Source: Methanocaldococcus jannaschii DSM 2661 | GTDB taxonomy: Archaea > AGJL01 > Methanococci > Methanococcales > Methanocaldococcaceae | Reading direction: 5' to 3' | Assembly (NCBI RefSeq): GCF_000091665.1 | Contig: NC_000909.1 | Coordinates: 443,581-475,580, forward strand | DNA: 32,000 bases | Shown here: in pieces, positions 2,795 through 30,486 of the stretch | Position numbering within the stretch: position 1 is the stretch's first letter | How the letters are laid out: every line of letters begins with the position of its first letter | Notes under the pieces: model-generated | Told to the model about the DNA's origin: nothing | Seen by the model: only the letters and a program-made list of their open reading frames with translations | Database searches by the model: none | Position numbers and translations under genes: made by a program

Positions 2795-3539
2795 ATTTAA
2801 ATATTTGTTATTTCTTGTTGTATTTGCAGTATTTTTCTTAACATTTGCTTTTTTTGACAACAGTAGTAAAAGTCATCAGGATGATGATGAACAAAAACCA
2901 ATAATTTTAATTCATGATGTCTCACCAGTGTATTTTAAAGAACTAAAGGAAATAGTAAAAATTATAGATAAATATCATTATCAAAATAGGAGCTATCTTT
3001 TTTTAATTGTCAATCATGCAAATAAATATAATTTAAAAAATTATCCTGAATTTGTAGATTATCTCCATAAATTAGAAAAAGAAGGTTACCATATAGAGTT
3101 CCACGCCTATAATCATATAGATGATGAGTTCAACTGTAACAAAACTGTGGCAGAGGAAAAATTAAATAAATCATTTAAAATTTTAGAGGAATGTGGTTTT
3201 AATCCTAAAAAAATAAAATATTTTATTCCACCAAGATATAAATTGTCAGAAGATGCTGAAAAACTGTTTTTAGGGAGAAATATTACAATAATCCTTGAAA
3301 ATAAAATGATAACAGAAAAAGATGGGAAAATAGTTGAAATTAGTATTACAAACAGAGAATATACTTGGTATCTTCCAAAACCATTAGTAAAAGTGGCTGA
3401 AAAAATAGCAACAACTGATTATAAATTAAGTATAAAAGAAAATAGAAAGTTTTTTCTCTCAATTCATCCAAAGGCAGTTAATTATGGCAGTGGATTAGAG
3501 TTTTTAGATTATTTCTTAAATGAAACGTCAAAAAATTAA
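2784..3539 (+). CDS. membrane-anchored hypothetical protein, DUF2334 / polysaccharide-deacetylase-like
   Basis: N-terminal TM helix ([18 protein letters not shown]) followed by a [10 protein letters not shown] motif reminiscent of DUF2334. It overlaps the upstream gene by 11 nt. Confidence 0.6.
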
Positions 3540-4145: not shown

Positions 4146-4688
4146 TTAGAGTTCTTGAACTTCTTTTATTGTATCTAAAATCTTCTTTAGAGCTCTTTTG
4201 GCATCTTCCTCACTCTTTAAACCAGTAATAACGACCTTACCACTACCAAATATTAAAACAACAACCTTCGGGTCATCCAACCTATAAACTAACCCTGGGA
4301 ATTGTTCTGGCTCATATTCAGTTCCTTCAACCATTAAGGCAATGTCATCTAAATTTGGCTCAATTCCTAAATCAGCTGTTGCGACCATATTTTGGATTTT
4401 AATTTCAGGGTTTTCAATAACATCAATTCCGGCATCTTTTAACTCTTTTATAATCTTTTTAATGGCTATTTCTGCCTCTTCTTTGCTCTTAGCTCCAGTA
4501 CAATTTACCTTTCCACTTCTAAATATTAATAAAGCAACTTTTGGCACTGATAATCTACAAACTAACCCTGGGAATTGTTCTGGCTCATATTCAGCATTTT
4601 CTAAAATCATAGCAACCTCTTCTAAATCAATATTGTCTCCAATTTTTGTTGAGACTACAACATTAACAATCTTAATTTCTGGTTCCAT
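4146..4688 (-). CDS. tbp: TATA-box binding protein
   Basis: Two internal TBP repeats, each ending in EQFPGLVCRL or EQFPGLVYRL, followed by ...IFRSGKVNCTGAKS in the first repeat and ...IFGSGKVVITGLKS in the second. The ORF-track start (GTG 4697) lies inside SD GGTGA, so ATG 4688 (MEPEIKIVN) is preferred. Confidence 0.93.
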   Translation of the reverse strand: MEPEIKIVNVVVSTKIGDNIDLEEVAMILENAEYEPEQFPGLVCRLSVPKVALLIFRSGKVNCTGAKSKEEAEIAIKKIIKELKDAGIDVIENPEIKIQNMVATADLGIEPNLDDIALMVEGTEYEPEQFPGLVYRLDDPKVVVLIFGSGKVVITGLKSEEDAKRALKKILDTIKEVQEL

Positions 4689-4719
4689 GATTTTCACCTA
4701 TTTAACAACTAACTTAGAT

Positions 4720-4839: not shown

Positions 4840-5148
4840 TTATCCGAATAAAGCTGCCAATCCAGCAACTGCAGCTGTATCTTCTTCCTTCTTCTCTTCT
4901 TTTTTCTCTTCTTCTTTCTTCTCTTCAGCAGCAGCTGCTGGAGCTGCAGCAGCTGGAGCAGCTGCAACAGGCATTGCAGCGTTTGCAATAGCTTCTTCAA
5001 TATCTACTCCTTCCAATCCAGCAACTAATGCTTTAACTCTTGCATCATCAACTTCTACACCAGCAGCTGATAAAACTGCCTTAATTGCATCTTCTGTGAT
5101 TTCTTTTCCTGCACTGTGCAATAATAAAGCTGCATATATGTATTCCAT
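4840..5148 (-). CDS. rpl12: 50S ribosomal stalk protein P1 (aL12)
   Basis: [19 protein letters not shown]... with an Ala-rich hinge and acidic [11 protein letters not shown]...LFG tail. SD GGAGGTG sits 6 nt before the ATG. Confidence 0.92.
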
Positions 5149-5258
5149 AATTTACACCTCCAAATGTTCTCCTTTGTGTTTTATTTATTTGTTTTAACCG
5201 TAATATCTAAACAATATTAATTTGAAGTAGAGTTTGCAATTCACTATTTATAATTAGT

Positions 5259-5274: not shown

Positions 5275-6291
5275 TTAGAACAATAGGGCTAATCCAGCCG
5301 CTCCTGTATCTTCTTCTTTCTTCTCTTCCTCTTTTTTCTCTTCTTCTTTCTCTTCCTCAGCTGCTGGAGCAGCTGAAACTTCTACTGAGGACAACTTAGC
5401 TTTAATGTCTTCATCCAATGCTTCGTCAGGCAATTTTGAAGCTAAAGCTAATGCCTGAGCCTGAGCTTTCGCTAATATGTCTCCAGCTGTTTCTTTTGTT
5501 ACGAATGCTGTCTCTACTGATAAAGCTCTTGCGTTTATGAATGCCTTCTGTATTAAGAATGGCAATACTTCTTTTGCTGGATATGCTGTGTTAAATGCCA
5601 AGTTAAATGCGTTTTGGTATGCAGCTTGTATGTCAGCTAATAACTTCTCTTCATCAACCTTTAAGACATCTGGTGTGTAGATAATTCCATCTTCATAAAC
5701 AGCTAAGATATTTAAACCAACTTTTATTGGCTTGATTCCTAATCTGTCTAAGACAGCTGCCAATTTTGGTGAAACAACTTCTCCTTTTTTAACAACAACT
5801 TTATCTTCTTTAATTGCAATTTTACCTTTTTCTATCGCAGCTGGAATACCAACACTTTTAAGCTCTCCTAAGAAAGGTCCTGGAGGCATTCCAGTTGAAC
5901 CTTTCTCAACTTTAATGTCACAAGGAGCTATTTGTCCTCCTCTTACAGGAGCAGGACTTTTGTTCTCTTCTAATAATTTGTATAACTTGAATGGGTTCAT
6001 GTCTGTAACTAATATAGCCGCCCCTCTCTCAACGTAGTTTGCTAACTCAGCTAATTTTGGATTGTTTAATTCTTCAGCAGCTTCTTTTAAAGCTCTTATA
6101 ATTAAGGTGTTTCTTGACATTCTTAATTTAACTTTGTCCCTGATTTTATCTCTAATCTCTTGCAATTGAGGGGCAGGAACGTCCATCATATCTACAATAG
6201 CCACTACAGGCTTACTTTTAATAAGCCCCTTGAGTGTTTTAACTTCTTCAATTTTCCATGGGGCTACGTGTGCTTTCACTTTTGTTTCCAT
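5275..6291 (-). CDS. rplP0: 50S ribosomal stalk protein P0 (uL10)
   Basis: [17 protein letters not shown]... with the same acidic [22 protein letters not shown] tail as P1. ATG 6291 is preferred over GTG 6306. Confidence 0.92.
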
Positions 6292-9370: not shown

Positions 9371-9450
9371 ACTCTCCCTTTGTAATTGTATTTAATTATG
9401 ATAAAAAATAGATACAACAAGTATAAAAATTTGATGAAATATAAAAAAGA

Positions 9451-9738
9451 TTTAAATATCTTCCATTTCAATTATATATAACCATAGAGGGGGCGTAGCC
9501 CCCTCTATTGGGATACTCCCCCAAATCTTGCTTGGACATTAATTGGGGCTGAAAGCCCCAACTTATAACCAATTATCAAAGAAAATATTATTTACTATGG
9601 AATTTAGAAGCCCAAAGGGCTTCTATAGTGCCTTATTTAATTAAAAACTTTGATAATTGGTTAAATGGACGTGAAGTATCCCAATAGAAGGTTTCCTCCT
9701 ATGGGAGTTAAATGTCTTCCATTTCAGTTATTATATAA
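9451..9738. repeat. palindromic modular element E1 (core 9482-9706) with flanking about 31-bp direct repeats
   Basis: The terminal inverted hairpin modules are CCATAGAGGGGGCGTAGCCCCCTCTATTGGGATAC (9482-9516) and GTATCCCAATAGAAGGTTTCCTCCTATGG (9676-9704). Module D is inside, together with a nested segment bounded by the inverted repeat AACCAATTATCAAAG / CTTTGATAATTGGTT. DR 9451-9481 and DR 9707-9738 each copy the last codons (EMEDI) plus the stop of the 9708 gene. Confidence 0.85.
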
Positions 9739-10412
9739 TTTCCTTCCTTTCCTTCAAATCCTCTAACTAAGAATGTTTTTCCATTTAATTTTAAGCAGAT
9801 TTCTCTAATTGTATCGTCAATTCCATACTCTTCAAGCATATCTAAAATTCCTGGCATAAATTGCTCTAATGTTGCTGGCGGGATGTAGCATCTTTTTGAA
9901 GATGTTCCAAAGTGTATCTTTCCAAACACCTTAATTTTTACATCTACATCTTCTGGGTCTATTTCTCCACAATTTCTGCAAATATAAACTAAACCTCTTG
10001 GTTTAATCTTAGTATCAACAATTCCTCTACATATTTTACAGTAATAATTTACAAATATTGTTGATTGTGAAACCTCCAATATGGCTGGAACTTTCACATC
10101 TAAAACTTCTCCTCTATTGTATAGTTGTTCTTTAGGAATTTCTGGAATTTCTCTTGGATATTTTACACCTTTAATAACTTTTTCAACTATTCTAACGCTC
10201 TTTTCTTCTGTTATTCTACCAAATATCTCGTAACATTTTCCTCTCTCTAAAGGAATTGTTGTTATAAAATTGGCTACTCCATCTTTATCAACCATAGTTC
10301 CAATGTAAAATATTGAACCTTCTTCACTCTCCTTCCTTCTGATATCTACAATTTTAACTTTTGTTAAAATTTGAGAATTTGGTAGTAGTGATTTTATCTT
10401 TCCTAATACCAT
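9708..10412 (-). CDS. hypothetical protein with OB-like N-domain and CxxC...CxxC zinc ribbon
   Basis: MVLGKIKSLLPNSQ... with CKICRG...CRNCGE motifs. ATG 10412 follows SD GGTGAT, and the ORF-track GTG 10421 lies in the SD. Confidence 0.7.
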   Translation of the reverse strand: MVLGKIKSLLPNSQILTKVKIVDIRRKESEEGSIFYIGTMVDKDGVANFITTIPLERGKCYEIFGRITEEKSVRIVEKVIKGVKYPREIPEIPKEQLYNRGEVLDVKVPAILEVSQSTIFVNYYCKICRGIVDTKIKPRGLVYICRNCGEIDPEDVDVKIKVFGKIHFGTSSKRCYIPPATLEQFMPGILDMLEEYGIDDTIREICLKLNGKTFLVRGFEGKEGNYIITEMEDI

Positions 10413-10544
10413 AAATATCACCTGATTATTAATTGGATTGAATTTACACCTCCGCCATAAGGCGGAGGTGTTAGGGTGTGTCCCAATAGAGGGTTTCCCC
10501 CTATGGTGGTTTTATTTTTCCCAATACCATAAAATATCACCTAA
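10398..10544. repeat. palindromic modular element E2 (core 10426-10515: module B + module A) with about 27-bp direct repeats
   Basis: Module B is AATTTACACCTCCGCCATAAGGCGGAGGTGTTAGGG (10441-10476) and module A is GTCCCAATAGAGGGTTTCCCCCTATGG (10480-10506). DRs are CTTTCCTAATACCATAAATATCACCTGA (10398-10425) and TTTTCCCAATACCATAAAATATCACCTAA (10516-10544). Each DR carries the SD, the ATG and the first 5 codons of the downstream gene. Confidence 0.85.
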
Positions 10545-11553: not shown

Positions 11554-12306
11554 TTATTTCTTTTCCCACATCTTTATGGCATTAGTTGGACATACATCTA
11601 CACATCTTCCACACAATATGCACTTATCCTTATTAATCTTAACTTTATCTCCATCTTGATCAATTGCGTTGATAGGACATTCTTCAATACAAACTAAACA
11701 TCCAACACATAGATTTTTATCAACTTCAATGTCTCTGGTTTTTATTACCTCTCCAAGCTCTCTCTCAACCTTTATACATTTTTTTGGGCAGACCTCAGCA
11801 CAAGCACCACAACCCATACATAAATCTAAATTAACCTCAATGCTCTTTCTTCTAACTGCCTTTATAGCATTTGTTGGACAGAATCTTGCACAAATTCCGC
11901 ATTTTATGCAAGTATTTTCATCAAGCTCATATTTTTTTAACCTAATCTTTCTGTGAGGGATTGATTTTTCTTTTATTGTATAATGAACTTCGCTATCTTC
12001 AATCTCTGCCCTTCCCTCTATAACATATATTGCTCCAACAGGGCATGTTTGGGCACAAATTTCACATTTAACACATTTATCTTCAATTATCTTTGCAGAT
12101 TTTTTAACCTTCGCTTTTTCAATTGCATCTACTGGGCATTCTTTGTAGCAAAGATTGCATCTAATACATTTAGTTTCGTTGATATATAACAATTTATAAG
12201 TTATGGGAGTTATTTTTTTGGCTACCTCATTAATATACTTTTTATCCCCATCTATCTTTGATAATATCTCATCCAATGACTTTTTTATCTCAATCAATGT
12301 AATCAC
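11554..12306 (-). CDS. polyferredoxin, six CxxCxxCxxxCP motifs (third ferredoxin gene of the eha cluster)
   Basis: Motifs: CIRCNLCYKECP, CVKCEICAQTCP, CIKCGICARFCP, CMGCGACAEVCP, CVGCLVCIEECP, CILCGRCVDVCP. Confidence 0.85.
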   Translation of the reverse strand: MITLIEIKKSLDEILSKIDGDKKYINEVAKKITPITYKLLYINETKCIRCNLCYKECPVDAIEKAKVKKSAKIIEDKCVKCEICAQTCPVGAIYVIEGRAEIEDSEVHYTIKEKSIPHRKIRLKKYELDENTCIKCGICARFCPTNAIKAVRRKSIEVNLDLCMGCGACAEVCPKKCIKVERELGEVIKTRDIEVDKNLCVGCLVCIEECPINAIDQDGDKVKINKDKCILCGRCVDVCPTNAIKMWEKK

Positions 12307-14041: not shown

Positions 14042-15184
14042 TCACCTAAATTTAATACTAATTGGAATCTCCTTGCCATCCTTTACTGCAACTATGCATC
14101 TCTCTGTGCATGAAACGCAAGGGTCGATACTTGTATAAGCAGATACAGCATCAGCTACAGTTGGACAAGTCTTTAGCATATATTTATACGCCTCCAAGTT
14201 CATAACTGTAGGAGTTCTAATCATTATCCTCTTTATTATCCCTCCATCAGTTATTTCCATCCTATAAGTTACCTCTCCTCTTGGAGCTTCATTCCTCCAC
14301 TCTCCTTTTCCTCCTTTAATCTCTGCCTTAACCCTTATATCTCCAGAACACTCTTCATAATGCTCTAAAGCCTCTCTAATTAATCTAACGCTCTCAATAA
14401 TCTCTTCATGCCTAACCATCATCCTTGCAAAGTTATCTCCTTCCTCCCTCCACACTGGCTTAAATTTCAACTCTTGATATGTTGAATGTCTTAACCTCCA
14501 ATCACTTTCTGGCAATCCAGAACCTCTACAAATTGGCCCAACAGCCCTCGTCCTCATAACTTCATGATATGGCAAAATACCAATTTCTTTACTTCTTAAA
14601 GCTATTAAAGGCCCTGTTTCAAAAACCTCAATAATATTTTTTAGTTCATCTTCAAAGATATCGAGTTTTTTATATATCTCATCCATCATCTCTCTATTTA
14701 TGTCTCTTCTAACTCCCCCAATTACATTATAACCCATATTAACCCTATTTCCAGTAATCATCTCCATTAAATCCATAATTATTTCCCTAACATTCAAAAG
14801 CCACATAGCAAGTGTTTCATGTTCAATAGATAAATTATACACTGCTGAAGCAATTAAATGGCTGTGTATTCTCTCTAATTCACAAGTAACTACCCTAAGA
14901 TATTTTGCCTTGTCTGGAATCTCTATCTTTGATATATGCTCAATGCATTCAGCAAACGTCATCGTATGCACATAGGAACAGATACCACAAACTCTTTCTG
15001 CTAAGTGAATTCCTTTATGGCAATGTTTTCCTTCCATAATTTTTTCTATTCCTCTATGAACATAACCCATTTCAATTTCAGCATCAACAGGTTTCTCTCC
15101 ATCTAAAACAAGTTTAATCCTTAACGGCTCTTTCAATACTGGATGAATTGGTCCTATAGGAATTGTTGCCATATTTTCACTCAT
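14042..15184 (-). CDS. ehaO: energy-converting [NiFe] hydrogenase A large subunit
   Basis: N-terminal RVCGICS and C-terminal DPCVSCTER Ni-Fe ligand motifs. Size is that of NuoD/HycE-like proteins (380 aa). Confidence 0.9.
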
Positions 15185-15623
15185 CTTTATTTTTTAATCT
15201 CTTTTCTCTCATTGCTATTGCCTTAGGAGCTACCTTTAAGATTGTTTCAATAATCTCAGAAGGTCTTGGAGGACATCCAGGGATTTTTGCATCTACAGGA
15301 ATAACTTTATCAACTCCTCCAACAACATGTCCTTCCTTAAAAATCCCTCCACTCAATGCACAAGCTCCAACAGCAACAACTATCTTTGGTTCTGGTGTTT
15401 TTTCATAAATCTCCTTTAATCTCTCTGCCCATTGTAAAGTTACTGGCCCTGTAACTAATAAAACATCCGCTTCTCTTGGGTTATTATGGACGTAAATCCC
15501 ATACTGCTCAATATCGTATCTTGGAGCTAAGCAGGCAACTATCTCAATATCGCATCCATTACAACCCCCAGTATTGACAACACAAACATGTATTGACCTT
15601 TTTCTGAATAATTCTTTCATCAT
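15177..15623 (-). CDS. ehaN: energy-converting hydrogenase A small subunit (NuoB-like)
   Basis: [17 protein letters not shown] and IPGCPPRP motifs. The ATGATG start at 15623 follows SD GGAGG. Confidence 0.9.
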
Positions 15624-15746
15624 GGCTATTCCTCCCAATAAATTTTAAGAGGCATTGCTTCTTTGCAGAAGCAATGCATCCTGGGTATCCCAATAGGGCG
15701 AAGCCCTATGGTTTCTGAATAATTCTTTCATCATGGCTATTCCTCC
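15601..15746. repeat. palindromic modular element E3 (core 15636-15711: module C + module A) with perfect 35-bp direct repeats
   Basis: TTTCTGAATAATTCTTTCATCATGGCTATTCCTCC occurs at both 15601-15635 and 15712-15746 (35/35 identical by eye). The core contains GAGGCATTGCTTCTTTGCAGAAGCAATGCATC and GTATCCCAATAGGGCGAAGCCCTATGG. Confidence 0.9.
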
Positions 15747-16150
15747 TTTAACAATTTGATAATCATCTGCCTACCTTCCTCCAACGCCTCTTTATATGGC
15801 TTTTTATACAGCAAATAACTTTCAACTACCTTTTTTCTAATTAAATCTGCTTCTTCTTTTTTTATAAGTCCAAAGAAATCACTAAGCCAGCACAGCCCTA
15901 AATCAATATCTACCTTCCTTCCTAAACAGCCCATCTTTGCCTGCTCTGCATAAGCATGGAGTTCATAACAAGATGCAAAATCCAATTTTTTTGCAAATAT
16001 TTCAATAACTTCCTCAACCTCTATCTTTAAAGCTTTAGCTATTGGAATAAATACATCATCCATTAAAAATCTATTATCCTTAAGAACATTCATCTTCTGT
16101 TTTAATGAATTCTCAACATATTTTTTGTCAATATCAACAATCTCAGTCAT
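15737..16150 (-). CDS. ehaM: Eha hydrophilic subunit
   Basis: Soluble protein of about 137 aa between the membrane subunits and ehaN. Named by colinearity with the published ehaA-T gene order. ATG 16150 follows SD GGTGG. Confidence 0.65.
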
Positions 16151-16152
16151 AA

Positions 16153-16437
16153 TTACCACCTCAAGAAATAAAGAAACAGGGCAACTGCTAATCCAACAAC
16201 AAATTCAACTCTTCCATATCCAGGTCTCATACCTAAAGGAAATCCAATTAATAGACATCCAAGCATATACAACGGAGAATTAATTAAAATCCCCCCAAAT
16301 ACTGAAATAGCTAAGGCAAACTTATCAATACCTTTTTCTACATAAGGAGAGGAGTATTTTCTATAGCTATATTCCAATCCAATAAAGTTTCCAATGATAA
16401 ACAATATTATAGCCAAATTTAGCTCAAATAATCCCAT
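16153..16437 (-). CDS. ehaL: Eha small integral membrane subunit
   Basis: 94 aa, about 3 TM helices. Named by operon position. Confidence 0.65.
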
Positions 16438-16448
16438 GATTTCACCAT

Positions 16449-16694
16449 TTACACAGGAATGTAGAGTTTATAAATTGCATATGCAAAGAAAGCTAAAACT
16501 AAGAGCATAAATAAAACCTCAATATCTTCCATTTTATGGGCTATTTTTTTGTTTATGGTTGAGATTGTTAATATCAAGATTAAGCTAAATGCTAAAACTA
16601 CTGGAATGACATTTATTTGCAATAGATTAACCAATACACAATAAATCACGGCAATAATGCATGCAATTGTAAAGAAATAAATGTAGCTTTTCAT
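16449..16694 (-). CDS. ehaK: Eha small integral membrane subunit
   Basis: [18 protein letters not shown]..., about 3 TM helices. ATG 16694 follows SD GGTGG. Confidence 0.65.
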
Positions 16695-16914
16695 TTTATC
16701 CACCCACTGTTAGTCTGTATAAGACCCATAGAGGGGCTTCGCCCCTCTATTGGGATACTCCCCAAATCTTACTAATTTACACCTCCGAGCGTAAGCGAGG
16801 AGGTGTTAGGTTTTGGTGAAGCTTTTACTAAAAGGTTCATCCCAATAGGGGGTTTCCCCTATGGATACAATGTAGCTTTTCATTTTATCCACCCACTATT
16901 AATCGATATAGGAC
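16680..16914. repeat. palindromic modular element E4, full-length composite (core 16726-16868: A + B + E + inverted A) with 46-bp direct repeats
   Basis: The left terminal copy of module A, CCATAGAGGGGCTTCGCCCCTCTATTGGGATAC (16726-16758), is inverted relative to the right terminal copy, CATCCCAATAGGGGGTTTCCCCTATGG (16838-16864). Module B is at 16774-16810. DR 16680-16725 versus 16869-16914 is 41/46 identical. The DR covers the ehaJ C-terminus and stop (VLYRL[I/T]VGG*) plus the ehaK SD, ATG and first 4 codons. Confidence 0.9.
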
Positions 16915-17763
16915 ATCACACAATACAAGTCCAGCAATTGTCATTTGAAGCATGACTGAATGATGAGGAGCTAATAATGGTGTTAATCCATTAACAAATG
17001 CTAAAATCACTGTCATTACAACCATTACAGCCAATGTTAATACAGGGCTGTTTATTACTAAAGGACCAATAAATACAGCTATAAAGAGCCAGAGCAATAC
17101 AAAGTATGCTATTGCCTCTGCAATGTAGATTATAGCCCCTAATAAACCATAATGCTCTGTCATATATCCGCTAACAATATCTTTACCCTTAACTATCCCA
17201 AATGGACTGTTTGGAGCTTTTGAAACAAGCAATATAAAGAATGCGAATGCACAAATTGGCATTTTAAACAATAAACTGCCGTGTATTTCTTGATAACTCA
17301 ATATATCTGAAATTAAAACTGAATGTGTTGTTAAGTATATGGCAGCAACAACTGCAAATAATGGCACTTCTGCAGCTGCTGAAAAGACACTTCTAACCCC
17401 TCCTATCTTTCCATAAGGAGACCCAGATGACAAACCACAACCATGCTCCACTATTTTTTGCAATACATAGATTCCTATAATTATAAGGAGGGATGACTTG
17501 AAATCAATAGCTATAATTAATGCAGCTAACCAAATAGCAATATCCAATAAAGCTACAAATATATAGAGAGGATTTCCAGCAGTTATTGGGAAAGTTATTT
17601 CCTTTACATAGAATTTTAGTGTATGCAATAGATATTGGATTATTGGAGGTCCTGGTCTTCCTTGAATCCTTGCCATTATTTTTCTATGTAATCCAAGTAA
17701 CAGAGAACCAACAAGAAATGCATGGATTGTTAAGTTTATAGCTCCGATAAGTGAAGTATCCAT
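16885..17763 (-). CDS. ehaJ: Eha membrane subunit, NuoH/HycD-like
   Basis: About 292-aa polytopic membrane protein with an RPGPPIIQ-type loop typical of the NuoH/HycD family. ATG 17763 follows SD GGGTGA. Confidence 0.8.
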   Translation of the reverse strand: MDTSLIGAINLTIHAFLVGSLLLGLHRKIMARIQGRPGPPIIQYLLHTLKFYVKEITFPITAGNPLYIFVALLDIAIWLAALIIAIDFKSSLLIIIGIYVLQKIVEHGCGLSSGSPYGKIGGVRSVFSAAAEVPLFAVVAAIYLTTHSVLISDILSYQEIHGSLLFKMPICAFAFFILLVSKAPNSPFGIVKGKDIVSGYMTEHYGLLGAIIYIAEAIAYFVLLWLFIAVFIGPLVINSPVLTLAVMVVMTVILAFVNGLTPLLAPHHSVMLQMTIAGLVLCDVLYRLIVGG

Positions 17764-17953
17764 AAGCATCACCCAGATTTTATCAGTTGTAAATTTACAC
17801 TTCCGAGCGAAGCGAGGAGGTGTTAGTTTTTGATGAAATGGAGAGCTATGCTTTCCAGCTATGAAAACTCTAAGAGTTTTCGTTCAACTTTTTCTAAAAG
17901 TTTCGTTTATAGTCCCTATCAGTGAAGTATCCATATCCTCACCCAGATTTTTA
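17746..17953. repeat. palindromic modular element E5 (core 17784-17916: module B + AT-richer hairpins + truncated A end) with about 38-bp direct repeats
   Basis: Module B is AATTTACACTTCCGAGCGAAGCGAGGAGGTGTTAG (17792-17826). Hairpins are GAAAACTCTAAGAGTTTTC and AACTTTTTCTAAAAGTTT. DR GATAAGTGAAGTATCCATAAGCATCACCCAGATTTTAT (17746-17783) pairs with TATCAGTGAAGTATCCATATCCTCACCCAGATTTTTAT (17917-17953). Each DR carries the SD, ATG and first 6 codons of ehaJ. Confidence 0.85.
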
Positions 17954-18184: not shown

Positions 18185-18841
18185 TTAAATTGTCAATAGA
18201 ATCTCAACAGTCCTTACAATCAACAACAGTGAGGAGAGGTGTATCATCAATATGTATGGTGAGCCAGGAGCTCTAAACATCTCCGCCTTTGCAGCATAGA
18301 AGGGAGCTATCCCAGTTTCTCCAGCCATTCCAGCGGCAAATATAATTTTTTCAAATAATAGGGATGTTTGTATTTTTGGCAGTTCAAAGATTGATAATGT
18401 CCCTGTTTTAGCCAATATCATCCCTGCAGAACCAAATAATGGAAGGGTGGCAATCATCGCTATAAGTCCATACTGATAACTTGCATTTAACACCCATTCT
18501 CTTTTAACTGCTGAGACAATACCTATATTTGCAATCCCAACTAAAGTTAAGAATAAGGCATAATCAAACAAATCATAAGTTAGCATAGCTCCAGCAGTTG
18601 CTATTCCGCAGACAATAGCCATCATTCTCCTAATTTTTAACTCATTTAGTGTTACTACCTCTAATTTATCTTCAATTTTAAATTTTTGAGCTTCTAACTG
18701 CTTTTCTGGCTTTGTTAAATAAACTATGATGGTAAATATTACTGCAGTGATAAATCCAATAATTGAAAATTCTGAAAAGCCAAATACAATGTCTCCAAAT
18801 GGAACAATTCCAAATAGATAGCCAGTTATTGATTCAATCAT
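18185..18841 (-). CDS. ehaH: Eha integral membrane subunit
   Basis: 218-aa polytopic membrane protein. Named by operon position. Confidence 0.7.
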   Translation of the reverse strand: MIESITGYLFGIVPFGDIVFGFSEFSIIGFITAVIFTIIVYLTKPEKQLEAQKFKIEDKLEVVTLNELKIRRMMAIVCGIATAGAMLTYDLFDYALFLTLVGIANIGIVSAVKREWVLNASYQYGLIAMIATLPLFGSAGMILAKTGTLSIFELPKIQTSLLFEKIIFAAGMAGETGIAPFYAAKAEMFRAPGSPYILMIHLSSLLLIVRTVEILLTI

Positions 18842-18968
18842 TTTATCTCACCTAATTTTATTAAATAATGGACATTAATTAGGGCTGAAAGCCCTAACTT
18901 AATGGACGGGTGGTATAGCAATAGGAGGTCTCCTCCTATGCTTTGTCAATCATCTTACCTCACCTATA
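18835..18968. repeat. palindromic modular element E6 (core 18857-18946: module D + degenerate module A) with 22-bp direct repeats
   Basis: Module D is GGACATTAATTAGGGCTGAAAGCCCTAACTTAATGGACG, and module A is GTATAGCAATAGGAGGTCTCCTCCTATG (18913-18940). DR CAATCATTTTATCTCACCTAAT (18835-18856) pairs with CAATCATCTTACCTCACCTATA (18947-18968). The DR is the ehaG-stop / ehaH-start ATGA overlap with its SD. Confidence 0.85.
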
Positions 18969-19654: not shown

Positions 19655-20116
19655 CTAATCCTTGTTGAAGAATAACCAGCTAAATATTATGAACGATATT
19701 AGCAGTATAGAACTTTCAAGCACTGTATCCATTCCTCTTGTATAGTATAGGATTTCATCCAATATTCCTCCAGGTGTTGAGACTATTGTTGTCCCAAAGT
19801 AGTAGGTTTTATCTTTAATCCATTCAGCTATTGGAGTTAGATAGGCAGTTATCTTTCCAAGATTAGGTTCATATTGTGGATATTGAGCTTTTAACTCTGC
19901 AGGTTCTTTTAATGGAATCCCTCCTCTATCATAAGGTGCTAATGGTGTTTTTAGTGTTTGAGAGTGAGGAATTGGTTTTGGATAAAGTTGATTGGGATTT
20001 AAGTAATGAGGCATCAATAACCCAAATATAAAGACTAAAGCTAAGAATACAGAGAATATTCTTGGGACAATTTCTGGCTTTGATAAATAGTTCCATATTT
20101 TACCAAGTTTTTTCAT
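19655..20116 (-). CDS. ehaF: Eha membrane-anchored subunit
   Basis: [34 protein letters not shown]... with TM helices at the N and C termini. ATG 20116 follows SD GAGGTGGG. Confidence 0.7.
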
Positions 20117-20253
20117 TATTACCCACCTCAAATTTTTCCAAACAAATTAATCAAAATTAATTTACACCTCCGAGCGTAAGCGAGGAGGTGTTAGGGTGTA
20201 TCCCAATAGAGGGTTTCCCTCTATGGTTTCCAAGTTTTTTCATTATTTCCCCC
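20101..20253. repeat. palindromic modular element E7 (core 20128-20226: module B + module A) with about 26-bp direct repeats
   Basis: Module B is AATTTACACCTCCGAGCGTAAGCGAGGAGGTGTTAGGG (20159-20196) and module A is GTATCCCAATAGAGGGTTTCCCTCTATGG (20198-20226). DR TACCAAGTTTTTTCATTATTACCCACC (20101-20127) pairs with TTCCAAGTTTTTTCATTATTTCCCCC (20228-20253). Each DR carries the SD, ATG and first 5 codons of ehaF. Confidence 0.88.
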
Positions 20254-20254
20254 T

Positions 20255-21833: not shown

Positions 21834-21960
21834 TCACCAGCAATGAATTATTATACACCATAGGGCTTCGCCCTATTGGGATACCCAGAGCGGGGCTTCA
21901 CTACGTTCAGCCCCACTTTCTTTTATTTCCCTGATTTACCAGCAATGAATTATAACACAA
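21834..21960. repeat. palindromic modular element E8 (core about 21859-21935: module A + a unique hairpin) with about 25-bp direct repeats
   Basis: Module A is CCATAGGGCTTCGCCCTATTGGGATAC (21858-21884), followed by hairpin GCGGGGCTTCACTACGTTCAGCCCCAC. DR TCACCAGCAATGAATTATTATACAC (21834-21858) pairs with TTACCAGCAATGAATTATAACACAA (21936-21960). Each DR carries the last codons (IHCW) plus the stop of the HTH gene. Confidence 0.85.
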
Positions 21961-23363: not shown

Positions 23364-23583
23364 AAAATAATGGCTCAGTTCGGGTAAGTATCATCACAGT
23401 TCAGCTAACCCTCTTTTCATCATTGCCATATTTATATATATTTTCAAAATTAATGATTTTTATTAGGAGTTAATAGGGTTTATATGTGTATTATCATGTT
23501 GATAATCACTAATGAAAAAGGTTTTTATTTTATTGGCACTTAAATATTATATACTAAATTCAATAATAAGAAATGGTGAAAAC

Positions 23584-27855: not shown

Positions 27856-28106
27856 GTTTTTGATACAATATTGTTCTTCTTAAACACGAAATATAGGGTT
27901 GGACAAAAATCGTGGAAAAAGAGAGGAGGTGACTATGATGGGTTTCCATACAATACTGTTCTCCTTAAACAATTTTAGAGATTAGGGGGGAGCCGCCCTC
28001 ACACCTCCCGTTTCCATACAACAATGTTCTTCTTAAACAGACTATCAGATGTAACCGATATTATCGATAAACGTTTAGTTTCCATACAACAATGTTCTTC
28101 TTAAAC
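27856..28106 (-). CRISPR. orphan mini-CRISPR array, 4 repeats and 3 spacers
   Basis: Plus-strand repeats: 27856-27885 GTTTTTGATACAATATTGTTCTTCTTAAAC (degenerate), 27942-27970 GTTTCCATACAATACTGTTCTCCTTAAAC, 28010-28038 and 28078-28106 GTTTCCATACAACAATGTTCTTCTTAAAC. Spacers are 56, 39 and 39 nt. The minus-strand repeat GTTTAAGAAGAACATTGTTGTATGGAAAC ends in GAAAC, and the degenerate repeat is distal to the AT-rich leader on the right. Confidence 0.85.
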
Positions 28107-28695
28107 CCTTTATATTTAGATATATTATAACTAATATTTATACTTTACTATTTAAAATTATTAATAACCAATATTAACATTCAATAAAAACCTTTTATTT
28201 TATCTAATAAATTAACAAAAAACCTCTAATCAAATAATAACCTAAAAATCATATCTTACATCTAAAAAATCTCCCCTATTCATTCAAATCTAAATTTTGA
28301 GTAATACTTTTTTAGTGATAATGATTATTTCAACCAAATAGAGAATTTTTAACTAATAAAATTTAAAATTTTCATTTAAAAATCTTTAAAATCAAAATCT
28401 GATAATGTAATCATTGGATAAATTTTTATCAATTTTTCATATACAAATAAAACATATAAAACCAAAACTATAGAAATCTATTTTTTAATTATCTAAAATT
28501 TCAAAAGTTTTTATTAGTTTTACTCAATTTTAAAGATTATTTTTATAACTCCGATTATTTGATTCTATAAAATTATCTCCATAATAAAATCTTTCATAAA
28601 ATCCCTTTAAATTAAAAAAATCTCAAAAATTAGAAAGTTTTTTATTAAAATAATAATTTTCTATTTGTAGTCCATAAAATCAAATATTCAGATAC
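28107..28695 (-). promoter_or_regulatory. CRISPR leader (about 590 bp, ORF-free, very AT-rich)
   Basis: There is no ORF in any frame. The region abuts the best-conserved repeat, with TATA-like TTATAATATAT / AAATATAAAGG just upstream (minus sense) of the first repeat. Confidence 0.6.
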
Positions 28696-28831
28696 TTACA
28701 ATTTTCCAGCAACTTCATAACCCTTACTAACCATAGGGCTTCGCCCTATTGGGATACCTGGATGCATTGCTTCTTTACAGAAGCAATGCCTCTTCTTTAT
28801 AACTCCTTTGCAACTTCATATCCCTTACTAA
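28696..28831. repeat. palindromic modular element E9 (core 28731-28796: module A + module C) with 25-35-bp direct repeats
   Basis: Module A is CCATAGGGCTTCGCCCTATTGGGATAC (28731-28757), followed by GATGCATTGCTTCTTTACAGAAGCAATGCCTC. It is the reverse complement of the E3 core. DR 28706-28730 CCAGCAACTTCATAACCCTTACTAA pairs with 28806-28830 TTTGCAACTTCATATCCCTTACTAA. Weaker similarity extends to include both stop codons. Confidence 0.85.
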
Positions 28832-29339
28832 ATGCCAATAAGTTTTTCTCTTCAGTTCCCTTTGGAACACTATCTAAAATTGCCTTTTCCATACTTTCCT
28901 TTGAAACAATATTTGTTAATCTTGTTAAAGCTCCTAACATAACTATATTTGCAACAATTGGAAGTTTTATCTCCTCTGATGCAATCCTTGTAAATGGGAT
29001 TTTATACATCGTTACATCAACTTCTGGCATTTTATCTGTTGAAACTAAATCCTCATCAACCAATACAACTCCTCCCTCTTTAATATCATCCTTATACTTA
29101 TCATAAGCCTGCTGTGATAAACAAACCAATATATCCGGCTTTATAACCTTTGGGAAGTCAATTGGCTCATCACTGATAACAACCTCTGACTTACTTGCCC
29201 CCCCTCTTGCTTCCGGCCCATAAGACTGTGTTTGAACTGCCTCTTTATTGTCATACAATGCTGCTGCCCTCCCTAAAATAACTCCAGCCAAAATAATTCC
29301 CTGCCCACCAAATCCAGAGAGTCTTATCTCTTTTCTCAT
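28797..29339 (-). CDS. korG: 2-oxoacid:ferredoxin oxidoreductase gamma subunit (2-oxoglutarate type likely)
   Basis: MRKEIRLSGFGGQGIILAGVILGRAAA... is the typical gamma-subunit N-terminus. SD GGAGGG precedes ATG 29339. Confidence 0.8.
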   Translation of the reverse strand: MRKEIRLSGFGGQGIILAGVILGRAAALYDNKEAVQTQSYGPEARGGASKSEVVISDEPIDFPKVIKPDILVCLSQQAYDKYKDDIKEGGVVLVDEDLVSTDKMPEVDVTMYKIPFTRIASEEIKLPIVANIVMLGALTRLTNIVSKESMEKAILDSVPKGTEEKNLLAFSKGYEVAKEL

Positions 29340-29352
29340 CTTAACCCTCCTT

Positions 29353-30165
29353 TTATTCACTCTTTAACTTCTCAATCAACTTATGCAATTCCTCAACAAA
29401 CTCTGGTTTCTCTATATCTAAAAACTCACCAACAACAATTTTTCCATTCAACTCCTCTTCACTCATATCCTTAGCTTTATTTAAGTGTATTGAGTTCTCT
29501 TTTAAGAATTTAATCATATCAGCTGGCTTTCTTGAGATGTTGAATCTTCCATAGTATGTTGGACATTGAGAGACAACCTCAATAAACGCAAATCCTTTCT
29601 TTTGAATACCCTTCTTAATTGACCTAACAAGCTGAATTGGATGAGCTGTTGTCCATCTTGCTACATAAGTAGCTCCTGCCGCAATCGCCATTTTACACAA
29701 ATCCATAGTATTTTCTATACTACCATAAGGTGCTGTTGTTGCCTTTTTACCATAAGGTGTTGTTGGTGAAACTTGCCCCCCAGTCATTCCATAGATATTA
29801 TTGTTTATACAGATGACAGTTAAATCTATGTTTCTTCTGCATCCATGGATGAAGTGATTTCCACCTATAGCTGCCAAATCTCCGTCCCCAGTAAATACAA
29901 CAACATGTTTATCTGGTCTTGCTATTTTAATTCCTGTTGCAAACGCTATAGGTCTTCCGTGGGTTGTGTGTAAGGAATCACAGTATAAATAACCAGGAAC
30001 TCTTGAAGAACAACCTATACCTGAAACAGCTATATAGTCCTCTGGCTTTATATTTAGCTCTTCAATAGCCTTTAAAAAGCAATTCATAACAATTCCATTT
30101 CCACATCCAGAACAGAAGATGTGTGGCAATCTATCTTGCCTCATGTATTTTAAAGCTGGATGCAA
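29353..30165 (-). CDS. korB: 2-oxoacid:ferredoxin oxidoreductase beta (TPP-binding) subunit (2-oxoglutarate type likely)
   Basis: FCSGCGNG, SGIGCSSR and GDGDLAAIGGNHFIH motifs. The TTG start at 30165 lies 4 nt after GGTGG; ATG 30144 is an alternative. Confidence 0.8.
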   Translation of the reverse strand: MHPALKYMRQDRLPHIFCSGCGNGIVMNCFLKAIEELNIKPEDYIAVSGIGCSSRVPGYLYCDSLHTTHGRPIAFATGIKIARPDKHVVVFTGDGDLAAIGGNHFIHGCRRNIDLTVICINNNIYGMTGGQVSPTTPYGKKATTAPYGSIENTMDLCKMAIAAGATYVARWTTAHPIQLVRSIKKGIQKKGFAFIEVVSQCPTYYGRFNISRKPADMIKFLKENSIHLNKAKDMSEEELNGKIVVGEFLDIEKPEFVEELHKLIEKLKSE

Positions 30166-30246: not shown

Positions 30247-30486
30247 TCATCTCCTCATAACTACCGCATGGCTAAGCTCAAACATTGCTCCCAACCTTTT
30301 AGTAAAAGGTTACTCGAACAACCTTTTAGAAAAGGTTGATCAAAACTTAGTTAAATAGGTATCCCAATAGGGCGAAGCTATGGTGCGTTGATCAAAACAG
30401 ATGCATTACCTCGCTACGCTCGGTAATGCCTCTTAGCATAGCTATTTCCTCATAATTACGGCATGGCTAAGTTCGAACATAGCTCC
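30247..30486. repeat. palindromic modular element E10 (core 30292-30440: two E hairpins + decayed module A + chimeric C/B hairpin) with 45-bp direct repeats
   Basis: Hairpins are AACCTTTTAGTAAAAGGTT and AACCTTTTAGAAAAGGTT. Module A is GTATCCCAATAGGGCGAAGCTATGG (30359-30383), followed by GATGCATTACCTCGCTACGCTCGGTAATGCCTC. DR 30247-30291 versus 30442-30486 is 37/45 identical. Both DR copies still read GAMFELSHAV[V/I]MR[R/K]*. Confidence 0.85.

Follow-up and report, generated by a model that had tools for sequence, protein, structure and literature searches.

Identical 35-nt repeats at the ehaM/ehaN junction of Methanocaldococcus jannaschii flank a palindromic mosaic insert that is probably old

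A 32,000-nt stretch of the chromosome of Methanocaldococcus jannaschii DSM 2661 (NC_000909.1, positions 443,581–475,580; hereafter the window, numbered from its first letter) contains, within the eha hydrogenase operon, a 76-nt insert between genes ehaM and ehaN that is flanked by two identical 35-nt copies of the gene junction. The question raised by this locus is whether the perfect identity of the two copies dates the insertion, as proposed by a first-pass annotation of the sequence, which took it as the trace of a recent event. Our best reading is that the insert represents a short palindromic element, non-coding and mosaic in structure, of the MJRE (REP/BIME-like) kind, lying inside a long direct target duplication. 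Probably, the insertion itself is old, with flanking copies that have been homogenised by conversion or unequal exchange and with an insert that is prone to precise loss.

The 35-mer TTTCTGAATAATTCTTTCATCATGGCTATTCCTCC is present in exactly two copies in the window (15601–15635 and 15712–15746), separated by a 76-nt spacer (15636–15711), as the first-pass annotation had described; no third copy was found in the window even at 3 mismatches, and none of 100 shuffles matched. The host genes are transcribed from the minus strand, on which the block reads GGAGGAATAGCC ATG ATG AAA GAA TTA TTC AGA AA. The open reading frames (ORFs) and their Pfam matches confirm the contents assigned to this block, namely the ehaM stop codon TAG, the Shine-Dalgarno (SD) sequence GGAGG of ehaN, its ATGATG start and 5 further codons. 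The upstream copy, c1, which ends ehaM, additionally carries a non-functional copy of the ehaN SD, the ATGATG and the 5 further codons, and the downstream copy, c2, starts ehaN (Table 1). Since this arrangement is reproduced at 100% identity in independent M. jannaschii assemblies (L126 and L092), an assembly artefact is excluded.

The insert is composed of a hairpin unit (A), a second hairpin module (C), joined to A by a CCA linker, and an AT-rich tail. The C module, whose outer GCATTG/CAATGC is kept across species while the inner stem is exchanged, is predicted to fold as an RNA hairpin with −17.6 kcal/mol at 37 °C and −2.7 kcal/mol at 85 °C, and both the A and C hairpins are predicted to be marginally stable as RNA at the latter temperature. 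No Rfam family was found for the element, either at gathering thresholds over the whole window or at E ≤ 10 over positions 15400–17000, and a terminator and promoter scan, of bacterial type only, gave nothing. Among viral contigs, the exact A unit had 0 matches; a degenerate A pattern gave 19, none of them with a hairpin, which we judged to be due to chance.

Examination of the same junction in related genomes revealed that several of them carry the A+C composite at the identical nucleotide (…AGAAA|CCATAGGGC); its orientation and its site-specific tail (TCTTAAAATTnATTn) are unchanged as well, and copies of the junction flank it. The junction is filled at that nucleotide in M. bathoardescens, which has A+C with a different inner C stem and strongly diverged flank copies; in sp. 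16A, which has A and the C tail, having lost the hairpin, and whose copies differ at 4 positions; in sp. 10A, which is as 16A plus a nested insert; and in four vulcanius-like contigs from metagenome-assembled genomes (MAGs), with near-perfect flank copies of 55–57 nt. In M. vulcanius M7 and in L087 the A unit is absent, and the tail and the right arm of C are retained upstream of ehaN. A clean empty site was found in M. fervens, FS406-22, M. lauensis, sp. 28A and the Methanothermococcus outgroup, as well as in ca. 45 metagenomic contigs from FS406-like and lauensis-like lineages. Contig L088 (MAG95, the closest MAG to M. jannaschii) has a reversed A+C, which is displaced upstream by 23 nt and bordered on both sides by the end of ehaM in perfect 33-nt copies; an inversion as the source of this arrangement was ruled out, because another stretch is duplicated there.

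The inserts of the five lineages filled at the ehaM/ehaN nucleotide agree in their A subtype, in the outer C stem and in the tail TCTTAAAATTnATTn, which A+C elements located elsewhere do not have. Since the insertion sites have no common target motif, one nucleotide is unlikely to have been hit independently, and four or more such hits with the same tail would be much less likely than a single old insertion. Divergence from M. jannaschii at fourfold degenerate sites is 0.41–0.58 for the filled lineages and ca. 0.8 (up to 0.84) for vulcanius. The duplication of 16A and 10A is old, as their functional copy has changed to …CTAATTAG and their upstream copy still has …CTATTCAGAAA. From the fourfold divergence, an insertion preceding the split of M. 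jannaschii and M. bathoardescens should have left ca. 6 neutral changes in that portion of c1 which has no function; the c1 copy of M. bathoardescens shows decay of the kind expected for an old insertion, and that of M. jannaschii has 0 changes.

An alternative is a recent de novo A+C insertion in the M. jannaschii lineage, with a fresh 35-bp duplication, the filled sites of other species being independent hits on a hot spot. Besides the 35/35 identity, such an event would agree with the empty junctions of the nearest relatives (FS406-22, M. fervens and all of the ca. 45 natural contigs), with the insert-free junction in two contigs that are 100% identical to M. jannaschii (L090 and L091, see below), and with the presence, 13 kb away, of a sibling A+C having the same inner C stem; MAG95, moreover, demonstrates that the junction has been hit independently. 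Nevertheless, it needs at least four independent hits in which one composite landed on one nucleotide, each time in a single orientation and with an identical tail that is not common to the family, even though the sites of different inserts have no target motif in common. It is also at odds with the old duplication of 16A and 10A, with the footprint of the element that is retained in the nominally empty site of M7, and with the filled junction of at least six assemblies of the same M. jannaschii DNA. We thus regard a recent insertion as distinctly unlikely.

The reading of perfect identity as recency is therefore not borne out, the same insertion being present in relatives at fourfold divergences of 0.41–0.84. 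The first-pass annotation had itself pointed out that finding the same insert with perfect repeats in distant species would imply selection or gene conversion instead; the same insert and flanks do occur in such species, although the copies have diverged in M. bathoardescens and 16A. Overall, the proposal of a recent event is partly supported, mostly with respect to the dynamics of the family.

An indication of how old copies could be identical came from junctions filled in two or more genomes, where we compared the number of sites that agree within each genome and differ between genomes with that of copy-specific sites. These were 12:0 and 11:0 for ehaJ/K, 4:0 and 2:0 for ehaO/P, 3:0 for the junction upstream of ehaJ (I/J) and, in comparisons with M. 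jannaschii, 5:0, 3:0, 2:0 and 1:0 for ehaM/N. For instance, ATGATG is present in both M. jannaschii copies and most relatives have ATGATA. Both copies of M. jannaschii and of the vulcanius MAGs share the same lineage-specific bases, which points to homogenisation and not to youth; in M. bathoardescens and 16A the copies have diverged. Additionally, the differences between relic and functional copies in all ten duplications of the window comprise 16 synonymous, 8 non-synonymous and 2 stop-to-stop changes (TAG→TGA and TAA→TGA; P = 0.0075), which suggests that the relic parts may have been overwritten from functional alleles. If the copies are homogenised, the 35/35 identity would date the last homogenisation and not the insertion.

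Comparison of closely related alleles revealed differences of one insert plus one flank copy. Contigs L082 and L084, 99.9% identical over 11 kb, differ at ehaO/P by exactly a 115-nt A+D insert and one 37–40-nt copy, and L084 has lost the insert, because the outgroup M7 is filled. The same type of difference separates, at ehaJ/K, sp. 10A (filled) from its sister 16A (empty) and, at ehaM/N, the vulcanius MAGs from M7 and L087; the structure in these MAGs corresponds approximately to two tandem repeat–A–C–tail units, with the first one decayed, and M7 reads as a contraction. A motif TATACAG apparently shared by M. jannaschii and 10A as a fossil at ehaJ/K was judged to be a frame-shifted chance match. 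In sp. 10A (L098, 9745–9974) we found a 170-nt nested insert, containing inverted A+D and other hairpins, that is missing from 16A and has, on either side, a perfect 30-nt copy of the resident A module, indicating that the elements also insert into each other, with a long duplication of the same kind. Finally, the ehaO/ehaP junction is filled at the identical nucleotide, with an AGA linker, in FS406-22 (L094, ~11600–11760) and in the vulcanius group (L082/L083, ~11700–11860), and modules have been exchanged at such orthologous sites, because the second module is C in FS406-22 versus D in the vulcanius group. The first-pass suggestion that the family may be active, or was until recently, is supported in the sense that the family is or recently was dynamic, given the L082/L084 difference, the perfect 33-nt copies around the reversed insert of MAG95 and the perfect 30-nt copies around the nested insert of 10A.

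In M. jannaschii itself, an empty ehaM/ehaN junction appears in L090 (ERR1254311) and L091 (Logan SRR30563850), both 100% identical to the window. The first derives from genomic DNA of a mock community containing DSM 2661 (PMC4787001; PMC4712552, Table 1). The filled form is present in L126 and five similar assemblies from the same mock project, and also in L092, L127 and L128. The empty form may correspond to a real subpopulation, to a polymerase chain reaction (PCR) jump across the hairpins between the perfect repeats, or to an assembly path, and we downgraded it as proof of in vivo excision in view of the filled junction seen when that mock DNA was assembled by others. A presence/absence polymorphism, which the first-pass annotation had proposed to look for, was in this sense found, in a form inseparable from an in vitro or assembly artefact. 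Two other differences in M. jannaschii assemblies may likewise be real variants or assembly errors: L128 (JGI 3300014779) has a 158-nt deletion relative to window positions 16802–16959, in which the end of ehaJ is lost together with some of the ehaJ/K insert, and L127 has a gap of ca. 47 nt in ehaL/M (16080–16126).

Several points weigh against an old and homogenised insertion. The five filled lineages are scattered on the ehaN+ehaO tree, and this patchy distribution needs at least five to six independent precise losses (FS406-22, M. fervens, M. lauensis, 28A, M7 and MAG95). The sole direct hint of loss in M. jannaschii comes from L090 and L091, where PCR jumping or assembly are possible. Distant lineages share almost no copy-specific substitutions and display the concerted pattern alone, so that it is the insert with its tail, and not the repeats, that argues for orthology of the copies; independent recent duplications would give this pattern too. 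Lastly, the scheme calls for gene conversion or a similar exchange between repeats of 35 nt, and for a stagger of 21–57 bp.

The patchy distribution could also result from re-entry guided by homology, or from lateral spread of alleles: the insert and one repeat would be excised when the two copies recombine, and homologous recombination, using the repeat or the eha genes on either side, would return them to empty sites or carry them from one genome copy, strain or species to another, so that the site is refilled repeatedly and perfect repeats mark a recent refill, not a conversion in place. The precise empty sites, the identity of site, orientation and tail wherever the junction is filled, and the likeness of relic copies to functional alleles (16 synonymous to 8 non-synonymous) are all compatible with it, as is the swapping of second modules at orthologous sites (ehaO/P with A+C in FS406-22 versus A+D in vulcanius, and the differing inner C stems). 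Yet no excised form or transfer was seen, a 111-bp circle is a poor substrate for recombination, and the M. jannaschii copies carry bases of their own clade (ATAGCC and ATGATG, as in M. fervens), not foreign ones. Re-entry is, in our opinion, unlikely, and it overlaps with the preferred explanation in assuming an old origin and an identity driven by recombination, from which it differs in the route alone.

The ehaM/N insert belongs to a family that is well represented in the window, with 11 A modules in 32 kb, plus hairpin families B, C and D, almost all intergenic. Ten inserts of 76–223 nt, including that at ehaM/N, are each flanked by direct copies of their own local target (21, 22, 22, 28, 33, 35, 36, 43, 47 and 49 nt; Table 1), with all pairs above 200 shuffles; the identity of the copies is 85–100% over 21–50 nt. 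The nine other duplications mentioned by the first-pass annotation do exist and exceed the shuffles, spanning 21–50 nt, with a divergence that is lower than the 10–25% it had estimated (5–15%, i.e. 85–95% identity). Flank duplications outside the window are 30–57 nt long, for an overall range of 21–57 nt. The duplicated stretches are gene junctions (stop codon, SD, start and first codons) or gene tails, and for this reason both neighbouring genes stay intact. Copy-to-copy spacing is divisible by three in some inserts (111, 171, 195 and 102) and not in others (256, 118, 188, 112, 127 and 101), and the idea of in-frame insertion was dropped.

Table 1. Coordinates and properties of the ehaM/ehaN junction and of the other inserts in the window.
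Feature	Coordinates	Strand	Description
Upstream flank copy c1	15712..15746	-	Last ehaM codons and stop TAG (15739-15737); 35/35 identical to 15601-15635
Downstream flank copy c2	15601..15635	-	Functional SD GGAGG and ATG (15623) of ehaN/MJ0516; relic of ehaM stop
ehaM	15737..16150	-	Pfam PF09218 (EhaM/DUF1959), 7.5e-53
ehaN (MJ0516, hydrogenase small subunit)	15177..15623	-	Pfam Oxidored_q6; cluster member AAB98505.1/Q57936
A module CCATAGGGCTTCGCCCTATTGGGATAC	15685..15711	-	27-nt REP-like hairpin unit; CCATAG end directly adjoins c1
C module GGATGCATTGCTTCT-GCAA-AGAAGCAATGCCTCTT	15647..15681	-	Perfect 11-bp stem
AT-rich tail AAAATTTATTG	15636..15646	-	Between C module and c2; site-specific, common to all species with the ehaM/N insertion
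Decoy ORF opened by c1, MMKELFRNHRASPYWDTQDALLLQRSNAS*	15645..15734	-	29 codons, through the element; ends 21 nt before ehaN ATG
ehaJ/ehaK junction insert (A…B…inverted A)	16677..16914	-	49-50-nt copies, 88% identical
Insert at junction upstream of ehaJ (no A; other hairpins and B)	17734..17951	-	47-48-nt copies, 85% identical
ehaG/ehaH junction insert (A+D)	18834..18966	-	21-nt copies, 90% identical
ehaE/ehaF junction insert (A+B)	20100..20254	-	28-29-nt copies, 90% identical
Insert between helix-turn-helix (HTH) gene and ehaA (A and another hairpin)	21836..21959	+	22-nt copies
A+B insert at gene start	10388..10542	-	36-37-nt copies, 89% identical
Composite insert (A…D…inverted A)	9449..9738	-	33-34-nt copies, 88% identical
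A+C insert, sibling of ehaM/N insert	28709..28831	+	22-nt copies
Multi-module insert	30249..30486	-	43-nt copies, 86% identical, covering the stop of a gene and the 13 codons before it

The A module defines one end of the inserts. In 11 Methanocaldococcus genomes, its CCATAG end is separated by 0–11 nt (median 1) from the nearer flank copy in every one of the 24 significant cases; the opposite end of the insert is formed by a second module (B, C, D or other) plus a variable tail, or by an inverted A. Among 17 copies of A, CCATAG and CTATTGGKATAC are nearly invariant, and three of the eight stem pairs covary (CG/GC, 12:4; GC/AU, 11:6 and 14:3) with no one-sided changes, which is, judging from this alignment, the mark of a hairpin whose structure is what is recognised and whose foot is conserved. 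The lack of G-U pairs in the A stems and the occurrence of A in both orientations relative to transcription would indicate a palindrome acting at the DNA level. The insertion sites of different inserts do not share any target motif.

Other members of the family in the window are also found in relatives. The ehaJ/ehaK site is filled in spp. 10A and 28A, but not in 16A or MAG95, where it is empty; sp. 16A has an insert at the identical site of the junction upstream of ehaJ, and the site at 10388–10542 is filled in M. bathoardescens. For the insert preceding ehaA, the duplicated flank consists of the HTH gene's stop and the 7 codons before it. The sibling A+C element, whose C module copy is at 28732–28809, lies inside the 3′ end of a POR-family gene (28797–29360, minus strand), of which it has replaced the last 3 codons; the protein now ends in …EVAKEL* from element sequence, with the displaced original …EVAGKL* downstream. 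At ehaE/ehaF, where M. jannaschii has an A+B insert, MAG95 contains a different small element (L088, ~3190–3320) with terminal inverted repeats AGTTCTTTTCAAAA…TTTTGAAAAGAACT. Module B (CTAACACCTCC-loop-GGAGGTGTAAATTA; 16773–16810, 20158–20195, 17790–17827 and ~10440–10480) contains a perfect SD sequence, with its other arm resembling, and presumably mimicking, the 3′ end of 16S rRNA; two of its copies, 3.4 kb apart, are 38/38 identical, and its right arm plus tail matches a real start region, GGAGGTGTAAATTATG, at ~5150–5170.

The concentration of inserts at eha junctions raises the possibility of a selected regulatory cassette, in which the hairpins and the duplicated ribosome-binding region would act on the eha mRNA and selection would keep the copies identical. 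The cassette might stabilise or process segments of the messenger, as REP does in bacterial operons, or its decoy ORF (Table 1) might relay ribosomes to ehaN. The covarying A stem, the conserved flanks and the predicted persistence of both hairpins at 85 °C would fit such roles, and the decoy ORF is open through the element, ending 2–21 nt before the ehaN ATG, in three lineages (M. jannaschii, 16A and the vulcanius MAG). However, this ORF has only 5 codons in M. bathoardescens, a truncation that rules out a conserved leader peptide, and its SD is degraded in the vulcanius MAGs. Most species and the ca. 45 natural contigs do not have the insert; no terminator-like site was found in the bacterial-type scan; selection on translation signals would not keep synonymous positions identical; and the occurrence of A in both orientations and its lack of G-U pairs fit a DNA-level palindrome. 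A regulatory cassette hence seems to us highly improbable.

Under the explanation that we favour, an old MJRE/REP-like insertion, a single event would have taken place before M. jannaschii separated from M. bathoardescens and 10A/16A, and probably also from the vulcanius group. The element would have been joined to target strands broken 21–57 bp apart, with repair duplicating the stretch between the breaks; candidate routes are a nuclease or integrase recognising the hairpin, or a template switch during replication. The anatomy of the junction suggests why this would be tolerated: because the duplication spans stop, SD and start, ehaM can still terminate in the upstream copy and ehaN begin in the downstream one, so that the operon remains viable. 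This rebuilding of gene ends allows elements to be tolerated in tightly packed junctions. Once in place, the repeat–insert–repeat array would behave as a 1.3-copy tandem repeat of 111 bp, whose copies could be kept alike by gene conversion or unequal exchange, possibly with insert-free alleles from other genome copies of a polyploid cell, or from other strains, as donors; recombination or slippage between the copies would delete the insert precisely. The parts of this scheme that the comparison of genomes demonstrates are the allelic difference of one insert plus one copy, the long and variable duplications, the one defined ragged end, the concerted flanks and the precise loss. A broader generalisation is more tentative and, we feel, somewhat doubtful: that of a still-mobile mosaic family that inserts by an undescribed route, with an A-led ragged end joined at the target, and which would duplicate 21–57 bp and rebuild gene ends, colonise junctions without any spacer and form a reversible cassette that can be lost, refilled or doubled while its flanks are overwritten.

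The closest known relatives are the MJRE1-3 palindromic repetitive elements of M. jannaschii, as cited in PMC2229807 and PMC2996958. The inserts described here come from the same organism and are also short, palindromic, multi-copy and mainly extragenic, the comparison being one of descriptions. Both kinds sometimes occur inside coding regions without destroying them, as does the copy at 28.7 kb that rewrites the last 3 codons of its host gene. To our knowledge, no sister genomes of M. jannaschii existed in 2005. In that year, Suyama, Lathe & Bork (FEBS Lett 579:5281) reportedly described 141 MJRE copies in three groups, judged to be old from their low identity. Long flank duplications, presence/absence between species and concerted evolution of the flanks apparently were not reported at that time, as far as could be checked. 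In a literature survey that did not include the original MJRE paper, we found no description of long duplications, of a role in healing gene ends or of flank homogenisation for such elements, and the long variable duplications of 21–57 bp appear to be undescribed for them.

Similarity extends to the repetitive extragenic palindromes (REPs) and bacterial interspersed mosaic elements (BIMEs) of enterobacteria and pseudomonads (reviewed in PMC3184786 and PMC3733652). REPs carry a tetranucleotide tag, GTAG or CGTC, at one end (PMC3733652), whereas the head here is CCATAG/CTATTGGKATAC, with neither tetranucleotide conserved in the A alignment, and the host is archaeal. In common with REP/BIME, the A family consists of imperfect palindromes of 20–40 nt with a conserved head and a covarying stem, forming mosaic clusters in both orientations between co-transcribed genes and polymorphic between strains. 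We do not know of REPs carrying target duplications of 21–57 bp. No transposase was found among the ORFs of the window, and no RAYT partner (an IS200-like Y1 transposase) was identified; in ca. 220 kb of related loci, a part of the whole genomes, the transposase genes were of the IS240 and DDE_Tnp_1 types only.

[quoted passage not shown] Nevertheless, ehaM/N and most other inserts have A at one end, ragged by 0–5 nt, a variable tail at the other and mosaic modules, and their duplication is variable and of 21–57 bp, not short and fixed. No matching autonomous insertion sequence (IS) was found in the small part of each genome covered. IS copies (DDE_Tnp_IS240 and DDE_Tnp_1) do occur near the eha operon of M. 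bathoardescens (L095, 540–1178) and sp. 10A (L098, 152–754 and 14863–15465), with ends that are unlike the A module. The only class of transposons with long variable target duplications that we know of is the IS1634/IS1549 type, whose members are 1.5–2 kb long, with a DDE transposase and defined inverted ends. These are said to produce direct repeats of variable length, ranging in size from tens of bp to hundreds (Vilei et al. 1999; Plikaytis et al. 1998). The 21–57-nt repeats found here resemble them in being long and variable, but the insert is of 76 nt and contains no ORF apart from the decoy of 29 codons, and the loci examined did not include an IS of this type.

Staggered integration by Cas1-Cas2 or casposon systems, which duplicates 14–37 bp and leaves a repeat–insert–repeat structure, was rejected as the class to which these inserts belong, because the lengths vary, the duplicated sequence is the local target and the inserts are repeated hairpin modules instead of unique 35–40 bp spacers. 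M. jannaschii has many small CRISPR arrays, and one with 3–4 repeats is present in the window, at 27857–28111 (Rfam CRISPR-DR42, 44 bits, with matches confined to 27942–28106); no cas genes were found in the window. The template and variable repeats of a diversity-generating retroelement were also discarded, since the differences between copies are of all types and not adenine-specific and there is no reverse transcriptase among the ORFs of the window.

Identical flanking repeats are routinely read as a mark of young insertions, and here they surround an insertion that is shared across 0.4–0.8 substitutions per neutral site; the dating of mobile elements by flank identity thus fails where short repeats are homogenised, as is likely to happen in archaea of high ploidy. 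The regeneration of gene ends by long target duplications would explain how non-coding elements invade operons with overlapping genes. The same duplications also make each junction unstable, possibly as a reversible insertion or deletion inside an essential hydrogenase operon. The first-pass annotation had recommended the ehaM/ehaN locus for working out the insertion mechanism; good templates are the ehaO/P alleles of L082 versus L084, the nested insert of sp. 10A and the inverted insert of MAG95.

Away from these inserts, the window encodes a C/D-box small RNA, sR3 (23373–23427, minus strand; Rfam RF01133, 52 bits). An ORF at 4146–4697 (minus strand) contains a 193-nt internal direct repeat (71%; 4162–4354 and 4435–4627), and low-complexity repeats coding for Glu, Lys and Ala are found at the ends of two adjacent ORFs (4866–4961 and 5283–5375), perhaps as tails of the ribosomal stalk type.

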